Source of the DNA: a virus
Taxonomy: Duplodnaviria > Heunggongvirae > Uroviricota > Caudoviricetes
Virus record (IMG/VR): IMGVR_UViG_2698536640_000007
Span: 1 to 5,140 of that record
DNA: 5,140 nucleotides
Direction: 5' to 3' (one strand)
Shown: positions 1 through 5,140 of the stretch, in pieces
How positions within the stretch are numbered: position 1 is the stretch's first letter
How the letters are laid out: every line of letters starts with the position of its first letter
Translations under genes and position numbers: made by a program
The notes under the pieces: generated by a model
What the model saw: only the letters and a program-made list of their open reading frames with translations
Databases searched by the model: none
What the model was told of the DNA's origin: nothing

Positions 1-348
1 AATTTTGTAAATCTTCACACCCAGCCGACCACCAAGAACAAGCTGACCACGTACAATATTGATTTCATCAAACTGCTCATCGTCCATTAACAACCCCGCA
101 TGCGTAAGCGCATCCAGCGGTGCTTTCAGAATATTGTCCAGGTCACGGCGGCGCTTATCCGGTGGTTCTGCAATAATTTTTATTGCCAACCGTCCGGACA
201 GGCTTAATTTCAAGCGCTGCTGGCGAACAATAAGCGCCACTGCCCGGCGATAACGCTCCCCGGCTTTTGATACAAAATATGTGCTGCCACGGCGTCGCCA
301 GTAAGTGTTCACCGTCGGCGGGTAAGGTAAAACCAAATCTATGAGCAT
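1..348 (-). CDS. rusA: Holliday junction resolvase RusA (crossover junction endodeoxyribonuclease); C-terminus cut by window edge
   Basis: Minus-strand frame from ATG at 348-346 is open to position 1 (116 codons) and translates MLIDLVLPYPPTVNTYWRRRG...DKRRRDLDNILKAPLDALTHAGLLMDDEQFDE..., matching RusA as recalled, including the acidic DxD and DD motifs. SD AAGAGGTG lies 4 nt upstream. The ORF-track entry 155..355 is a different, out-of-frame reading of the same DNA. Confidence 0.8.
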   Translation of the reverse strand, partial: MLIDLVLPYPPTVNTYWRRRGSTYFVSKAGERYRRAVALIVRQQRLKLSLSGRLAIKIIAEPPDKRRRDLDNILKAPLDALTHAGLLMDDEQFDEINIVRGQLVLGGRLGVKIYKI

Positions 349-360
349 CAGTCACCTCTT

Positions 361-1410
361 TTACCCAAGCACGCCAGTTGCAAAGGCGTGATCAAGAAAA
401 CGAAAAATTAAATCAACCTGAGAACCATGCTTTTCTTCGAACGCCAGCGGATCCGCATGAAGCTCGTTGTGATGCTCCCGACACAGCGGTAGCGTGAAAA
501 TATCGTGAGATTTTGTCCCCATTCCGCCCTGACCATGACCAATCAGGTGATGGGGATCGTCGGCTGGCTTACCACAACACGCACACGGCTGTGTCTTCAC
601 CCAGCGTTTGTATTTCTCGTTAACCCAGCGGCGACGTTTAGGTCGTTTCATGAAAGATTCCGGAGACTCAGGATCAACGGCAATGCTGACCACCGTCTTT
701 TCCTGTGGTGAGTTCTGTTGCTGGTGGGCGTGAGGCAGCGGCGCAAGATTTTTTGTGCGCTGTTTCAGGATGCTGGTGGCGGTCTGCTCTCCCGGCACGA
801 TGTCGCTCTCGCGGTATACTGAGCGAATTTTTTCCGCACGTAACCCCAGAGAACGACGTAATGCTGCCTCTGGTAGCGCGTCCGCCACCTGATTGCAGAC
901 CGCCCACCAGGATAATTCAGCCAGCGATAATTCCCGCTCCTGCGTGCCATTCATTGCATGGCGTATGACGTCAATCATCCATGCTGACAAGTTTTGATGA
1001 GCAAGTTGCTCGAGTGATTCGGATGTCTGGTCACGCAGCTGGTTGTCGCAGTGCCAGCACAACACCATTGCGCCGGTACCATAACGGTGAATAACGGTTT
1101 CGCTGTGATGATAATCGCCGTGTGGCCACTGGCAGGATTTAATATGGCGCAACAGCCAGTCAGACAATGCACCAGCACCACCAGCAGCACGAATTACCCG
1201 TGCGTTACTGAAAAACGGCAGCAATGTTTTGTCTTCCACCAGCGGCTGGCGAACGGCAGGAACGACCCCGGACGGCAGATTACGCATGCTTTTCGGTTCC
1301 GGCTCCACCAGTACCCGGGTATTGTGGAATATAGGCATGGATTCACGGCCTGGCTTAAGGACCACCAGCCCGAGTTCCGGAACCAGTACAGGTCGAAGTA
1401 ATACCCGCAC
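361..1410 (-). CDS. ydfU: YdfU-like DUF968 prophage protein with C-terminal Cys/His HNH-like zinc-finger motif (NinG-position gene)
   Basis: 349-aa ORF from the track. Start is GTG at 1410-1408, preceded by GGAGGT (1421-1416); the upstream gene's TAA stop (1414-1412) sits inside this SD. C-terminus carries CACCGKPADDPHHLIGHG...CREHHNELH. Length and position next to rusA match E. coli Qin prophage YdfU as recalled. Confidence 0.8.
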   Translation of the reverse strand: MRVLLRPVLVPELGLVVLKPGRESMPIFHNTRVLVEPEPKSMRNLPSGVVPAVRQPLVEDKTLLPFFSNARVIRAAGGAGALSDWLLRHIKSCQWPHGDYHHSETVIHRYGTGAMVLCWHCDNQLRDQTSESLEQLAHQNLSAWMIDVIRHAMNGTQERELSLAELSWWAVCNQVADALPEAALRRSLGLRAEKIRSVYRESDIVPGEQTATSILKQRTKNLAPLPHAHQQQNSPQEKTVVSIAVDPESPESFMKRPKRRRWVNEKYKRWVKTQPCACCGKPADDPHHLIGHGQGGMGTKSHDIFTLPLCREHHNELHADPLAFEEKHGSQVDLIFRFLDHAFATGVLG

Positions 1411-1411
1411 G

Positions 1412-1690
1412 TTACCTCCAGATGCGTTGCTGGAATGTGCGGGACGGACGCGGTGGGCGTTCAGAGTAAGGAAGCCTGACGGAGATTATCCAGTGACGAT
1501 AATCGAGGCTGAGGGTTTTCCTAAACTCATACCCACGTCTGCGGTAGTTCTGAATCAGCCATTCGGCCTGTTCTTCAGTGCATGGGGCGTGCTGGAACCA
1601 GTCAGATTTGAATGCATGAGAACGCCGCCCGTGCCTGCTGGCAAAGACGGCTGAATTATCAGAATTGTATAATTTGGTATCGTGCGCCAT
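1412..1690 (-). CDS. Hypothetical phage protein, 92 aa (MAHDTKLYNSDNSAVF...)
   Basis: The track ORF 1412..1771 begins at a TTG inside the U-tract of an intrinsic terminator; the only in-frame ATG is at 1690-1688. Stop TAA at 1414-1412 abuts the ydfU-like start. The SD is weak (AGAGA), so the exact start is uncertain. Confidence 0.55.
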   Translation of the reverse strand: MAHDTKLYNSDNSAVFASRHGRRSHAFKSDWFQHAPCTEEQAEWLIQNYRRRGYEFRKTLSLDYRHWIISVRLPYSERPPRPSRTFQQRIWR

Positions 1691-1758
1691 CGGTTGTCTC
1701 TGCTGGCGCAGCAGGTGCCAGTTGTTCAGGCTGGCATGCGAATTGTAAACCAGAATGC

Positions 1759-1790
1759 CAGGAAAAAACAAAACCCGCCGAAGCGGGTTA
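1759..1790 (-). terminator. Rho-independent terminator of the hok transcript (minus strand)
   Basis: On the minus strand: AACCCGC-UUCG-GCGGGUU (7-bp GC-rich stem 1772-1778/1783-1789, 4-nt loop) followed by UUUUGUUUUUUCC. The plus-strand reading has no T-tract, so it is unidirectional. Confidence 0.7.
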
Positions 1791-1791
1791 A

Positions 1792-1808
1792 GTGCGGGTG
1801 CGTTGAGG
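1792..1808 (-). promoter_or_regulatory. fbi-like 3' fold-back element of hok mRNA, complementary to the transcript 5' end
   Basis: Plus 1792-1808 GTGCGGGTGCGTTGAGG is near-identical to the reverse complement of plus 2173-2188 (CTGCGGGTGCTTGAGG): 15 matching positions with one single-base bulge, about 370 nt apart on the same transcript. Confidence 0.6.
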
Positions 1809-1857
1809 ATGCCTGACTCATCAGAGGTGGCGAGGGATTTCTCCCTCGCCAGGTCTC

Positions 1858-2013
1858 TTACTCCTCAGGTTCGTAAGCTGTGAAGACAGCGACCTCCGTC
1901 TGGCCGGTTCGGATTCGTACCTCGCAGAGGTCTTTCCTCGTTACCAGTGCCGTCACAATGACGGTAATACAGATGACGATCAGGGCGATTAACATCGCCT
2001 TTTGCTGCTTCAT
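1858..2013 (-). CDS. hokD: Hok/Gef family type I toxin, 51 aa (MKQQKAMLIALIVICITVIVTALVTRKDLCEVRIRTGQTEVAVFTAYEPEE)
   Basis: Hand translation of the minus strand from ATG 2013-2011 to TAA 1860-1858. SD AAGGAG lies 9 nt upstream. Single transmembrane helix followed by the conserved RKDLCEV...TEVAVF...YE periplasmic tail of Hok/Gef proteins; closest in memory to HokD/RelF and HokC. Absent from the ORF track because it is below the length cut-off. Confidence 0.85.
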   Translation of the reverse strand: MKQQKAMLIALIVICITVIVTALVTRKDLCEVRIRTGQTEVAVFTAYEPEE

Positions 2014-2071
2014 AGCCTGCTTCTCCTTGACCTTTCGGTCCGTAAGAGGCTAACCTACGTGTGTAGAGCAT
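1865..2071 (-). CDS. mok: Mok-like overlapping reading frame (modulator of killing), 68 aa
   Basis: Track ORF that starts 58 nt upstream of hok and overlaps almost all of it in another frame, as mok does in the R1 hok/sok locus. GAGG lies 9 nt upstream of its ATG. Confidence 0.55.
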   Translation of the reverse strand: MLYTRRLASYGPKGQGEAGYEAAKGDVNRPDRHLYYRHCDGTGNEERPLRGTNPNRPDGGRCLHSLRT

Positions 2072-2130
2072 AGATATGGCCTCAGATTAATGTTAAGCGT
2101 CTTGCCGGACGCGTAATGTTAACTGGGGCT
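2060..2130 (+). ncRNA. sok: Predicted Sok-like antisense RNA (coordinates approximate)
   Basis: Inferred from hok/sok architecture: the antisense RNA should be complementary to the hok mRNA leader around the mok start. A candidate plus-strand promoter is TTGACC (2027-2032), 18-nt spacer, TAACCT (2051-2056). I could not define a clear 3' terminator. Confidence 0.3.
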
Positions 2131-2172
2131 TTTCTCTATCTGCCTTTTGGTGTTCATGCCTGAGACAGATAG

Positions 2173-2196
2173 CCTCAAGCACCCGCAGCGATTTTA
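2173..2196 (-). promoter_or_regulatory. hok mRNA 5' end (tac-like element) with candidate -10 hexamer
   Basis: Minus-strand TAAAAT (2196-2191) followed by GCGGGUGCUUGAGGCUAUCUGUCUCA, which resembles the R1 hok mRNA 5' end as recalled and pairs with 1792-1808. The predicted transcription start is about 2184-2186. Confidence 0.45.
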
Positions 2197-2227
2197 CAGA
2201 AATAAGTTATTATTTTCTATCTCACCC

Positions 2228-2254
2228 TTCACTTATCTCATTCCTAGCTATACT
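2228..2254 (+). promoter_or_regulatory. Candidate sigma70 promoter for the 57-aa plus-strand ORF
   Basis: TTCACT (2228-2233), 15-nt spacer, TATACT (2249-2254), about 30 nt upstream of the ORF at 2286. The spacer is short, so this is tentative. Confidence 0.3.
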
Positions 2255-2285
2255 CATCGTTCACACAACATTAAAGGGCATAAAA

Positions 2286-2459
2286 ATGACCGTTCATGGT
2301 ATACAGGAAGGCAGTATTGTTAACTTACGTGAAAAAGATGGGGAATGGCTTGTAGTACAAACTATTAAAAACGACGACCTTACATATCAACTCCGAAATA
2401 CAGATACCAACGAAGAAGTAAACGTCGCACTTCAGGACATTATCTCCCCAAATAAATAA
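2286..2459 (+). CDS. Hypothetical small protein, 57 aa (MTVHGIQEGSIVNLREKDGEWLVVQTIKNDDLTYQLRNTDTNEEVNVALQDIISPNK)
   Basis: ATG at 2286 with SD AAGGG 7 nt upstream and TAA stop at 2457-2459. It is the only plausible plus-strand gene in the window, divergent from hok and convergent with the 114-aa gene. No confident family assignment. Confidence 0.5.
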   Translation: MTVHGIQEGSIVNLREKDGEWLVVQTIKNDDLTYQLRNTDTNEEVNVALQDIISPNK

Positions 2460-2468
2460 TCAAATCAG

Positions 2469-2489
2469 CGGGGCGCACGATACCCCGCA
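2469..2489. terminator. Hairpin between convergent genes (possible terminator)
   Basis: GCGGGG-CGCACGATA-CCCCGC, a 6-bp GC stem. On the minus strand it is followed by the U-rich stretch UGAUUUGAUUAUUUAUUU; on the plus strand the downstream sequence is not T-rich. Confidence 0.3.
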
Positions 2490-2580
2490 CTATTCCACTT
2501 ATCACCCCAGCGGCAAATCGAATACACCACCAGCGCCACCGCCATTGCAATTCCTACCGTTGTTAATGCTTCAGGCCAGG

Positions 2581-2925
2581 TCATCGTAAAATATCCTCCA
2601 CGCTTATCAGTCCGTTCCGCTCCAGATAACTCATCGCCTTATCCGGTAATTTGCAGTCTGGCTTCGCTTTCCTCAGTTGCCAGGTTAACTGCTTTACCAG
2701 CATGGTTAACTCATCGACCAGACGCTGATATCCCACTGGTTTGTATTCATGCAATTTACCGGCTGGCTCTGCTGCCAGCGATACCAGTGCGATTTCCAGA
2801 ACAGCAATATCCATCTTATATGTGCGGATGATGTCATGGTCGATTGTGCCCGGTATGCACAGTCTCTGTGCTTCAATAGTCTCCTCTGCGTGAGCTATTA
2901 ACTGCTCTCTGGTAAAAGTCGTCAT
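2581..2925 (-). CDS. Hypothetical protein, 114 aa, translationally coupled to the upstream HNH endonuclease gene
   Basis: Track ORF. Its ATG (2925-2923) overlaps the HNH gene's TGA (2924-2922) as ATGA; SD AAGGGG lies 7 nt upstream. No family recognised. Confidence 0.7.
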
Positions 2926-3287
2926 GCCGTAGCCCCTTCTTGATATTTTTCAAACCAGAACACAACCGGGTCAGATTTCATTTCAACCAATCCCATACGA
3001 ACCAGCGCTTTGCCTTTCCCGGACGCAAGGAATTCACGACGACCATCACTGATAATTCGCCGATAATCTTCCAGACTACTGCAATGCTTGTGCAGATTGC
3101 ATGGGTGGCATGCCGGAACCATGTTGGATATATCGTCACGTTCCTGGTGAAGCATATTTCCATTAAAACGAATGACCGGTTTTACATGGTCTGCATGCCA
3201 CTTTTCGCCAAGTTCGCAGCCGCAATAAGCACAGCGACCACCGAACTTCATGCGCAGTTCTGCGCGTTGTTTTTTCGTCAGTGCCAT
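2922..3287 (-). CDS. HNH endonuclease, 121 aa
   Basis: Start moved to the internal ATG at 3287-3285, which has SD AAGGAAA 8 nt upstream; the track's longer ORF 2922..3377 runs into the preceding gene. Protein [38 protein letters not shown]...[14 protein letters not shown] carries the CxxC...HxxH...CxxC...H pattern of HNH nucleases. Confidence 0.85.
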
Positions 3288-3288
3288 A

Positions 3289-3519
3289 TCAGCTTTCCTT
3301 ATACGGATTAATTTTATTGTGCAGTGTGTTGAATGACGCACATACCACGTCGTTATACAATTCAATAACTGGCTCAATTATTTTTCCGATTATCCAGACT
3401 AGGATTAACGGGGATATCGGTATCATCAACCCCATCCGTCGGTTGCTGAGTCTCACCCACTGCCAGACGCCAGGAGCGTTTCTACGAACTAACAGAATCT
3501 TTGCTTTACGGTTTTTCAT
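3289..3519 (-). CDS. Hypothetical small protein, 76 aa, basic N-terminus and hydrophobic core (possible membrane protein)
   Basis: ATG at 3519-3517 with a strong SD (AGGAGA, 8-nt spacer). Stop TGA at 3291-3289 is 1 nt from the HNH start. The 3' half lies in AT-rich DNA, so it is less certain as a coding region. Confidence 0.45.
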   Translation of the reverse strand: MKNRKAKILLVRRNAPGVWQWVRLSNRRMGLMIPISPLILVWIIGKIIEPVIELYNDVVCASFNTLHNKINPYKES

Positions 3520-3691
3520 CGCTTTGCTCTCCTGCGTCTCTTTGCTGCTCGTCGTGCCGCTGCAATACCGGTATGGCGGCGCTTTGGTGCCGGGATGATG
3601 TTGTCAGCCATCAGGACATGTGGCTTTGCAATTAGCGCAGAAGCCCAAAAACGAGTCGGGTACGGTAACAAGCCGATACATGCCACACGCA

Positions 3692-4477
3692 TTACTCACC
3701 TCCTTTGATGCGAATGCCAGCAGCGCGTGGCACATTAACTTCCACGATGCGCACTGTTGGTTTGTACATCTCAATCGCTGTCAGCCAGTCAGCTCCTGTC
3801 ATGCGCTTTTCCGCATCGCCATTAGTCCACTTAACCGGTACACCAATAGACTTCATCGCGATTTCTATTTCCCCGGCGATGGCGCTTTTTCCGCAACCAG
3901 TAAAACCAGATACAACGACAAGAACTTCGCCTTTGGCTGGTTTTATTTCCCGTGCTTCCTGCCCTGATTTGCGCAGCAAAACAGCGTACTTTAATGCGTC
4001 CTGGGCTTTCTGAAATTTCAGTGCATAGTCAGTGGCGATTTTCTCCAGTTCAGCAATACGCTTACTCCCATCCGAGATAACACCTTCGTAATACTCACGC
4101 TGCTCGTTGAGTTTTGATTTTGTCTCCTCAAGCTCAACTCTCAGCTTCCCAACCGTAAGCGCAATATCCTCGTTCTCCTGGTCGCGGCGTTTGATGTATT
4201 GCTGGTTTCTTTCCCGTTCATCCAGTAGCGCCAGTACGGTAGCTGGGTTAGCATCTGCTATAAATTCAGCGTTTGCATAAGCCTGAGCATCTGATTCAAT
4301 CAGGCAGTTAACATGACATTCGGCAATCACGCCACCGGGTTCTCCTTTCCATTTTTGACAAACAAAAACTCCTGTTAAATTGCCGTGCTGGTTAACAGAT
4401 GTATGCCCTACGATGTAGCTTCCTTTAGTTGCTTTCTCTGCCTTTTCACGCAGTGCCTGATAGTTAATCTCGCTCAC
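3692..4477 (-). CDS. Ead/Ea22-like prophage protein, 261 aa, with central coiled-coil
   Basis: GTG start at 4477-4475 with SD GGAGG 7 nt upstream, overlapping the upstream TGA as GTGA. N-terminal ...QALREKAEKATKG...AEFIADANPATVLALLDERE... resembles Ea22-family proteins as recalled. The middle is rich in heptad-like charged residues. Confidence 0.6.
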   Translation of the reverse strand: MSEINYQALREKAEKATKGSYIVGHTSVNQHGNLTGVFVCQKWKGEPGGVIAECHVNCLIESDAQAYANAEFIADANPATVLALLDERERNQQYIKRRDQENEDIALTVGKLRVELEETKSKLNEQREYYEGVISDGSKRIAELEKIATDYALKFQKAQDALKYAVLLRKSGQEAREIKPAKGEVLVVVSGFTGCGKSAIAGEIEIAMKSIGVPVKWTNGDAEKRMTGADWLTAIEMYKPTVRIVEVNVPRAAGIRIKGGE

Positions 4478-4698
4478 TCTTCATCCTCCAAGTCGGCAAC
4501 GGCGTCCATCACATCAGAACCGCGAATAACCTCAAAAGCACGGCAGGCCATTTGAAATACCAGTTGCTCTTGCGGGTGAGGAGACTCCCAATATTTGAAG
4601 CCTGGGCGATGCGTGTACCCCATCATTGAATAAAAATCACCAGCAAGCTTAATCGCGGCATCGACAAGCTCTCTGTTAGTCATTCTTTTTCCGCTCAC
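4474..4698 (-). CDS. Hypothetical small phage protein, 74 aa
   Basis: GTG start at 4698-4696 preceded by AGGAGG with a 6-nt spacer; overlaps the upstream TGA as GTGA. An in-frame ATG at 4683 is an alternative start (69 aa). Confidence 0.6.
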   Translation of the reverse strand: MSGKRMTNRELVDAAIKLAGDFYSMMGYTHRPGFKYWESPHPQEQLVFQMACRAFEVIRGSDVMDAVADLEDEE

Positions 4699-5045
4699 TG
4701 GTTGCCTCCTTTGCGAAGCTGGGCGGCTAACTCATCACATATGTGCGTCAAAGAACAAAGTTTGATTGATGGATGTTCGCGCATCATCTCTACCCCCTGC
4801 GCCCGCACTTCAGACAGGAAAGCATCGGTGGCTGGCATATTTCCTGTTGCCTTCATTGCCTCCAAAATAACCAGAACGCCATCTCGCCCAATCTCCTCGC
4901 AGATAACCTCGGTGCTGTCGCCAACAACATCGCAAAATGCCTGAACTGCTTTACGAGCCAGCGCATCTTCCGCCCTGTGAAACGCCTCGCGGTTGAAATT
5001 TTCATATCCCGTCATTGGACCGGCAATATAAACTCTCACCCTCAC
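4695..5045 (-). CDS. DUF4406-like (nucleoside 2-deoxyribosyltransferase-like fold) protein, 116 aa
   Basis: GTG start at 5045-5043 preceded by GGAGGT with a 6-nt spacer. N-terminal MRVRVYIAGPMTGYENFN matches the YIAGPMTG signature I associate with DUF4406/NDT-like proteins; the rest of the protein is not recognisably conserved. Confidence 0.5.
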   Translation of the reverse strand: MRVRVYIAGPMTGYENFNREAFHRAEDALARKAVQAFCDVVGDSTEVICEEIGRDGVLVILEAMKATGNMPATDAFLSEVRAQGVEMMREHPSIKLCSLTHICDELAAQLRKGGNQ

Positions 5046-5140
5046 TCCATCACCTCCTGAAAGTTTCCCCGATAGAACGCCAGCACACGCTGCATAACTT
5101 CGCTCCTCCTGCTCTCACGACAAATTATGTTCTGCCGTCT
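5042..5140 (-). CDS. 3' end of an upstream phage gene (partial; N-terminus beyond window)
   Basis: Minus-strand frame open from the window edge to TGA at 5044-5042 (...RQNICRESRRSEVMQRVLAFYRGNFQEVME*), and the stop overlaps the next GTG start as GTGA. Alternatively only the last 17 codons (ATG 5095, SD AGGAGGA) are translated. Confidence 0.35.
   Translation of the reverse strand, partial: RRQNIICRESRRSEVMQRVLAFYRGNFQEVME

Follow-up and report, generated by a model that had tools for sequence, protein, structure and literature searches.

Introduction

The hok/sok (parB) locus of plasmid R1 is the paradigm of type I toxin-antitoxin (TA) systems. In the general mechanism described for hok, the mRNA is closed by pairing of its tac and fbi elements, its 3' end is trimmed, the mok Shine-Dalgarno sequence becomes exposed, and Sok binding leads to decay by RNase III (PMC9841398). 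A phage-borne relative, hokW-sokW, is a working type I TA system in which the toxic HokW protein (44% identical to R1 Hok) is neutralised, partly via RNase III and Hfq, by the sokW RNA, which has its own promoter and of which 71 nt are complementary to the hokW 5' untranslated region (UTR); upon mitomycin C induction Sok decreases and Hok increases, and the locus approximately doubles phage release (PMC8621323). A further relative is hokD (relF) of the Qin prophage of Escherichia coli K-12, the third gene of the relBEF operon, where the gene order is ydfU, a 92-aa gene, rem, hokD, relE, relB, ydfV and flxA. An ancestral hokD of approximately 70 codons is stated to have become the 51-codon gene of Qin owing to relBE integration (PMC6379469, citing Ramisetty and Santhosh 2016).

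Here we analyse a 5,140-nt stretch of tailed phage DNA (IMG/VR record IMGVR_UViG_2698536640_000007, positions 1 to 5,140; hereafter the window). It very probably carries a complete and autonomous hok/mok/sok type I TA cassette (approximately positions 1764-2219) that would work in the manner of R1 and hokW, and that represents the ancestral-like form, relative to which the K-12 form is derived.

Gene content of the window and anatomy of the hok locus

The large genes of the 5.1-kb window are all located on the minus strand and resemble the nin/Q-proximal part of a lambdoid prophage, in which the hok cassette is a moron. No complete E. coli genome was found to hold the whole window intact; as the best coverage was only 71%, the window is a typical prophage mosaic. 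The following features were identified, from left to right:

Left edge, minus strand: C-terminal fragment of RusA, aligned with the annotated RusA gene in loci L001 and L004
361-1410, minus strand: DUF968/ydfU-like gene
1412-1690, minus strand: 92-aa gene
1708-1763, no strand: 56-bp spacer where K-12 and BL21 have a 422-bp segment with rem (blastn, tblastn)
1772-1789, minus strand: intrinsic terminator forming the hok mRNA 3' end, AACCCGC-UUCG-GCGGGUU followed by a U run (terminator scan)
1796-1808, minus strand: fbi (fold-back inhibition) element CCUCAACGCACCC, predicted to pair with the mRNA 5' end (minimum-free-energy fold)
1858-2013, minus strand: hok toxin gene of the hokD type, 51 aa (Pfam, PHROG, comparison with K-12)
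1865-2071, minus strand: mok-like ORF of 68 aa, overlapping hok (ORF list, frame analysis)
2014-2184, minus strand: 5' leader of the hok mRNA, in which lie tac, the region targeted by Sok and the Shine-Dalgarno sequence of hok (Rfam, alignment)
2027-2056, plus strand: predicted sok promoter, -35 TTGACC (2027-2032), 18-nt spacer, -10 TAACCT (2051-2056) (positional homology)
2063-2137, plus strand: predicted Sok antisense RNA of approximately 72-75 nt, with inferred ends
2191-2219, minus strand: hok promoter-like site, TAGAAA, 17 nt, TAAAAT (promoter scan)
2198-2505, no strand: AT-rich insert of 308 bp (alignment, GC content)
2286-2459, plus strand: 57-aa orphan ORF, divergent from hok (ORF list)
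2465-2584, minus strand: 39-aa hydrophobic ORF, at the end of the upstream minus-strand gene string (ORF list)
Further right, minus strand: a 114-aa ORF and genes of the HNH-domain, Ead/Ea22-like and DUF4406 types

A preliminary description of this DNA had reported a hok locus with mok and a full leader, a divergent 57-aa gene upstream of it, and no relBE between 2014 and 2580, and all three are borne out by the results given below. The product of hok matches the Pfam family HOK_GEF (PF01848; E = 9.7e-24; 83.2 bits, the cut-off being 22) as well as PHROG 251, 'MokW-like host killing' (E = 2.8e-33), and is thus a Hok/Gef-family toxin of approximately 50 aa. It equals K-12 HokD at 50 of 51 residues, with I16 in place of L16 as the sole change, and this near-identity, together with that of the 3' UTR, places the gene in the hokD orthologue group. 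The Tyr47 codon of hok is UAC, followed by G, at 1875-1872. The terminator at 1772-1789 is conserved in K-12 and BL21.

The stretch from 2014 to 2580 holds the regulatory half of the cassette. Rfam family RF01794 is named sok yet is modelled on the hok sense strand, up to the AUG of hok. The minus strand at 2011-2184 is matched by the entire model (model positions 1-157 of 157; 109.5 bits with a gathering threshold of 59; E = 4.4e-25), and this full-length match to a covariance model makes the leader a member of the structured-leader family. The leader, which aligns with those of hokW, BL21 hokD and R1-type hok, includes the tac element at 2173-2184 and the hok Shine-Dalgarno sequence AAGGAG at 2023-2028.

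The mok-like ORF starts upstream of hok, overlaps it, possesses its own Shine-Dalgarno sequence (GAGG, 2083-2080) and matches PHROG 37205 (E = 1.6e-20). Its ATG precedes that of hok by 58 nt and is not in frame with it, whereas in BL21, O157, the 933W type, loci L005, L006 and L009, and the R1-type plasmid it is located at -57 and in frame, an arrangement that gives an N-extended Hok of 70-71 aa. The difference is due to one extra A at 2030, adjoining a small hairpin in whose stem the base pairs have changed in a compensatory manner (UGCC/GGCA to GACC/GGUC); in L005 a deletion appears to compensate. This indel could decide whether the N-extended 70-aa Hok is made. With a 65-nt query (1998-2062), an exact full-length match was present only in the top match among the matches listed, and as a count of the -58 variant the identity bands of this query are confounded by partial matches of the K-12 type.

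The predicted sok promoter has counterparts at the same position in the R1 type (TTGCGC-17-TATCCT) and the hokW type (TTGCCT-17-TAACCT); it falls below the threshold of a consensus promoter scan, and its -10 hexamer TAACCT is weak. Downstream of it, the 5' tail of the predicted Sok is complementary to the mok Shine-Dalgarno sequence and start codon, and a hairpin at 2078-2129 (-29.7 kcal/mol, z = -4.8) is followed by CUUUUCUCU, with a U-rich tail. The predicted elements would thus provide an antisense Sok, with a promoter and a terminator hairpin over the mok start, whose predicted size of approximately 72-75 nt agrees with the 71-nt complementarity of sokW (PMC8621323). Transcription of hok itself is predicted to start near 2184, from a promoter-like site of which the -10 lies within the conserved module and the -35 within the rare insert.

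Folding of the 417-nt transcript from 2184 to 1768 (z = -8.3 relative to dinucleotide shuffles) predicts that tac (2184-2173) pairs with fbi (1808-1796), and this long-range closure is present in both the minimum-free-energy and the centroid structures. In the R1-type plasmid GGCGCUU pairs with AAGCGCC at the same two places, which indicates that tac/fbi pairing is kept via compensatory changes. In a comparison of eight hokD-type loci, variation within the leader was greatest over the stretch comprising the Sok 5' tail and the mok start, where approximately one third of the sites vary, as against 2-7% in neighbouring parts.

Comparison with K-12 Qin and the BL21 prophage

Alignment with K-12 Qin revealed 85% identity (blastn) between window positions 361-1707 and K-12 ydfU with the 92-aa gene, and 97% nucleotide identity between 1764-2027 and the 3' UTR, coding sequence and Shine-Dalgarno sequence of K-12 hokD. 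The locus thus shares synteny with Qin on the side of ydfU (DUF968), and the window hok is the hokD paralogue itself, set in homologous and not in unrelated lambdoid surroundings. Between the 92-aa gene and hokD, K-12 carries a 422-bp segment with rem, downstream of hokD, where the window has 56 bp and no rem. This further difference had been missed in the preliminary description.

At 2027|2028, which lies within the -35 hexamer of sok and 14 nt upstream of the ATG of hok, homology to K-12 stops, and K-12 continues with relE. The K-12 locus keeps only the hok Shine-Dalgarno sequence, coding sequence, fbi and terminator, which fits the known co-transcription of the relBEF operon; the sok promoter, Sok, the mok start, tac and the hok promoter are absent, with relE-relB-ydfV-flxA in their place. 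A search with a word size of 7 identified no displaced leader remnant elsewhere in the 10-kb K-12 locus. Conversely, tblastn of K-12 RelE, RelB and Rem against the window gave chance matches only (best E = 0.12), blastn of the K-12 relE-relB-ydfV DNA matched only the 14 nt adjoining the hok ATG, and no ORF overlapping 2014-2580 exceeds 58 aa besides the 68-aa mok-like ORF. The window therefore differs from the relBEF arrangement in having no relB-relE upstream of hokD and a leader that is unbroken to 2184, the break being a feature of the K-12 locus. The K-12 arrangement from which the preliminary description had argued, with a truncated hokD downstream of relB-relE and close to rem and ydfU, is correct.

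An intact counterpart is present in BL21 (E. coli B). Its prophage is collinear with K-12 Qin: a hypothetical gene, rem and hokD occupy corresponding locus coordinates, and identity to K-12 is 95% as far as the breakpoint, beyond which the BL21 prophage continues into an intact leader (94% identity, to window position 2197) and has no relBE. Beyond the leader lie a DUF977 gene and two further genes, of which one is annotated 'hypothetical protein' and the other 'toxin YdaT family protein', followed by a Cro-like repressor gene. In place of these 1.84 kb K-12 has 2.07 kb, from relE to ydfX, and homology resumes at dicC/cro. The BL21 locus differs from the window in that it has rem, a mok in frame at -57 and DUF977 directly upstream, and lacks the insert with the 57-aa ORF. 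Of the two intact loci, that of BL21 is closer to the K-12 locus; the window, lacking rem and bearing a rare 308-bp insert, is not a direct precursor of K-12.

The frequency of the two forms was assessed in 5426 complete E. coli genomes, a genome being counted if it had a place covering at least 80% of the query. The hok leader (window 2014-2197) was present in 4274 genomes, a number that may include plasmid-borne and multi-copy prophage loci since places and not orthologous sites were counted (in genomes with any match, a median of two and a maximum of nine places). The junction of hokD and relE of K-12 was present in 1165 genomes, and among the matches listed those that are not junctions stop at query position 99, i.e. 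at the same breakpoint. In addition, the cassette was identified in 63 phage records, many of them Stx phages with the annotation mokW/hokW or 'RelF', and in 449 plasmid records.

It might be argued that the relBE-hokD arrangement of K-12 is ancestral and that the window arose from it by loss of relBE. Beyond K-12 having been described first, nothing speaks for this order of events, which would require the re-creation of a 170-nt leader homologous to those of plasmid and phage hok/sok loci; moreover, the K-12 break cuts through the sok -35, a functional element that adjoins the Shine-Dalgarno sequence of hok, and the junction form is in the minority (1165 against 4274 genomes). We consider it exceedingly improbable. 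The number of genomes with the leader, its occurrence in phages and plasmids, its homology to plasmid leaders and the position of the K-12 break together argue that the earlier reading of this site as a variant, ancestral-like state was right, provided that the window is not taken for the K-12 precursor itself. The intact form is thus the common, ancestral-like state and the truncated K-12 form the derived one, in which the regulatory half of a once intact cassette was lost by replacement. On this reading, approximately 2 kb (relE-relB-ydfV-flxA and beyond) took the place of all sequence upstream of the hok Shine-Dalgarno sequence, leaving hokD without a promoter and without Sok as the third gene of the relBEF operon. 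This contrast with K-12 is correct but already known, the same conclusion having been published (PMC6379469).

The AT-rich insert, the 57-aa ORF and the flanks of the cassette

The insert has a GC content of 38.6%, compared to approximately 50% in its flanks, and stands in place of approximately 32 bp that are present in O157-type loci. It may have entered precisely at the hok promoter in place of the native -35 region, in which case it could affect the transcription of hok. To its right, a terminator hairpin at 2468-2488 (terminator scan) overlaps the 3' end of the 39-aa ORF, and the stretch 2505-2584 is conserved in approximately 1248 E. coli genomes.

The 57-aa protein had no match in Pfam, PHROG or NCBIfam, nor did tblastn against 50,697 phage records return any. 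Homologues of the ORF were found only in E. coli prophages; an exhaustive HMMER search yielded three close clusters besides repeat proteins. The latter (polyubiquitins, Tudor-repeat and SpaA-repeat proteins) were judged to be spurious remote matches, as their scores were summed over many repeats. Close homologues (75-100% identity) adjoin hok in L001 and L004-L006, while L007 is too short to show hok; among the close homologues dN/dS ranges from 0.9 to 1.6, values that carry no information on just 7-21 substitutions. A further copy, in L012, is 71% identical with in-frame indels and a dN/dS of 0.33; it is homologous to the window from 2196 to 2584, a stretch that also takes in the terminator hairpin and the 39-aa ORF. 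This copy is located in a different prophage region that has no hok nearby, and is flanked by a PerC-like gene and by abc2/exonuclease/ssb/erf/kil/cIII. The AlphaFold2 (AF2) model of the protein is a small SH3/Tudor-like beta barrel (pLDDT of 80.9 in one of five models), for which Foldseek returned generic SH3, Tudor, PWWP and KOW barrels only, none at E <= 0.001.

The head-to-head orientation of the ORF and hok, the supply of the hok -35 region by the insert and the adjacency to hok in L001 and L004-L006 would be in keeping with a functional partner of hok/sok, such as a regulator sharing the intergenic promoter region. Such a partnership is very unlikely, since the insert (window 2198-2584) is present in 8 of the 5426 genomes and thousands of genomes have the hok leader without it, and since the L012 module is located between its PerC-like and abc2/exo/ssb neighbours away from any hok. 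As the ORF also occurs elsewhere without hok, it is probably a real small moron gene that is unrelated to hok/sok or relBE. The ORF may represent a new family of orphan morons, which would change position among prophages along with the terminator hairpin and a small membrane ORF. That the insert carries an expressed SH3/Tudor-like orphan moron and alters hok, with the mok indel separately deciding whether a 70-aa Hok is made, is a joint reading that we regard as rather doubtful.

Prophages vary in what they carry between the terminator of hok and the 92-aa gene. This slot holds rem in K-12, BL21 and L006, a NirD/YgiW/YdeI-family gene in O157 SS52, an HTH gene with a hypothetical gene in CMZE046, and a PF06296 RelE-like and HTH_3 pair in L005, and it is empty in the window, SW070917 and ECO2947. 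Both flanks of the cassette act as exchange slots, having received relBE, rem, the RelE/HTH pair, the YgiW-like gene or the 57-aa ORF.

Proposed working of the cassette

Alongside the observed anatomy, homology and population frequencies, the expression, toxicity and Sok control of the window copy would be expected by analogy with the R1 paradigm and hokW-sokW. According to this model, a weak promoter would give rise to a stable 417-nt hok mRNA that is kept closed and untranslatable by pairing of 5' tac and 3' fbi. Slow 3' trimming would open the mRNA and expose the mok ribosome-binding site, and translation of Hok would be coupled to that of mok. An unstable Sok RNA transcribed from the other strand would pair over the mok Shine-Dalgarno sequence and start codon and direct the mRNA to RNase III decay, so that Hok, a membrane-damaging peptide, would be made only once Sok is no longer replenished, e.g. 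upon loss of the element or prophage induction.

A structurally complete cassette may nevertheless be silent, as a decaying chromosomal hok without killing or without Sok control, similar to the hok loci of the K-12 chromosome. Chromosomal hokA, hokB and hokC are cited in a preprint (bioRxiv 10.1101/2025.08.07.668861) as reportedly unable to bring about post-segregational killing, and the window has an unusual 1-nt insertion that sets mok out of frame at -58 and lengthens the sok spacer to 18 nt, a variant that appears uncommon among the matches listed. All elements are, however, intact, with no IS insertion, stop codon or deletion; the compensatory pairs in the hairpin beside the indel suggest that structure is still under selection, and the 91%-identical hokW-sokW is active (PMC8621323). 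We therefore hold silence to be unlikely and favour a functional, autonomous cassette.

The textbook hokD (relF) of K-12 is thus an atypical, truncated form, whereas in E. coli prophages a full hok/mok/sok cassette is the usual form, and for this reason the biology of hokD is better studied on such copies. The value of the present locus as a discovery is small, as the cassette is ordinary, common and already explained.

Comparison with hokW-sokW and with hok/sok of plasmid R1

The hokW-sokW locus (with mokW) of the Stx2 prophage Sp5 and phage 933W is the same hokD-type cassette and is likewise a prophage moron. The copy in 933W-type phages is 91.5% identical to the window at the nucleotide level over positions 1786-2197 and is collinear with it through the promoter -10, tac, the Sok hairpin, the mok start, the hok coding sequence and fbi; the primers used for hokW-sokW deletion match the 5' end and 3' UTR of the window mRNA almost base for base. 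The two differ in their setting, hokW being located near the right end of the 933W-type genome by antirepressor-side genes and not by DUF968/rusA. They also differ at approximately one third of the positions in the Sok 5' tail and mok-start region, in the mok ATG (-57, in frame with hok and with a 70-aa product, in hokW; -58 in the window), and in the Hok C-terminus (VDYESEK against TAYEPEE), and hokW lacks the terminal hairpin seen at window 1772-1789.

The hok/sok locus of R1 shares its architecture and Rfam family with the window, including a sok promoter that overlaps the hok Shine-Dalgarno sequence at the same position and a tac/fbi pairing maintained by compensatory changes. Its sequence is distant and its carrier is a conjugative plasmid, whereas the window is carried by a prophage, and the role of the window cassette may accordingly differ from that of R1, serving phage release rather than plasmid maintenance.

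The mok reading frame and the variable part of the hok leader

An extra A at position 2030 of the window, in the stretch 2014–2071, places the mok ATG at -58 relative to that of hok, out of frame with hok and opening an ORF of 68 aa, whereas in six other hokD-type loci and an R1-type plasmid the mok ATG lies at -57, in frame, resulting in an N-terminally extended Hok of 70–71 aa. The same additional nucleotide converts the sok -35 element from TTGCCT to TTGACC. In the adjoining hairpin the stem is altered by compensatory pairs, and the comparison prophage locus L005 possesses this window-type hairpin plus an upstream 1-nt deletion that restores the -57 spacing.

Across eight hokD-type loci, approximately one third of the sites vary in the region 2057–2083, which comprises the Sok 5' tail together with the mok Shine-Dalgarno sequence and start, as opposed to 2–7% of sites in the neighbouring Sok hairpin and tac stem. 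Hok leaders were located at a median of two places per genome, and the variability could be a sign that Sok specificity has diversified in genomes holding several copies.

The 3' end of the hok mRNA

A sub-threshold Rfam match to isrK, a Salmonella prophage-encoded Hfq-binding sRNA, was obtained at 1768–1849 (minus strand; 27.8 bits, gathering score 50, E = 0.004), and spans both hairpins of the hok mRNA 3' UTR. The hokC, hokD and hokE mRNAs are reported to undergo A-to-I editing, which converts a late Tyr into Cys (bioRxiv 10.1101/2025.08.07.668861). The UACG motif is retained at 1872–1875 (minus strand), where it consists of the Hok Tyr47 codon UAC and the following G.

Mosaicism around the hok cassette

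In no complete E. coli genome does a single place account for more than 71% of the window (1–5140). To the right of position 2585 (a 114-aa ORF, an HNH gene and an Ea22-like gene) the window belongs to a different mosaic block from that of the best hok-side matches. The unit at 2196–2584, composed of the 57-aa ORF, a terminator hairpin and a 39-aa hydrophobic ORF, recurs at 3912–4302 of prophage locus L012, in a different prophage region that is near int and devoid of hok. Between the two copies, the product of the 57-aa ORF shows 71% identity (dN/dS of 0.33); its predicted fold is a small SH3/Tudor-like barrel.

The cargo immediately beyond the hok terminator also varies between prophages:

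L005, 3529–4210: PF06296 RelE-like gene and HTH_3 gene pair
L008, 2609–2953, and L009, 1179–2913: NirD/YgiW/YdeI-family gene, or HTH gene with hypothetical gene

In L005, hok is adjoined by a second, different RelE-family TA system. Each side of the cassette behaves as a point of exchange.

Comparison with K-12 and BL21

The gap between hokD and the 92-aa gene is filled in K-12 and BL21 by a 422-bp segment containing rem; the window lacks rem and has 56 unrelated bp (1708–1763) there. In K-12 Qin, a relE-to-ydfX segment stands in place of the hok leader (L002 5249–7316 versus 5249–7083 of the BL21 locus, L003), and likewise replaces the DUF977 gene, adjacent hypothetical gene and ydaT-like gene that in BL21 separate hok from the Cro-like repressor gene.
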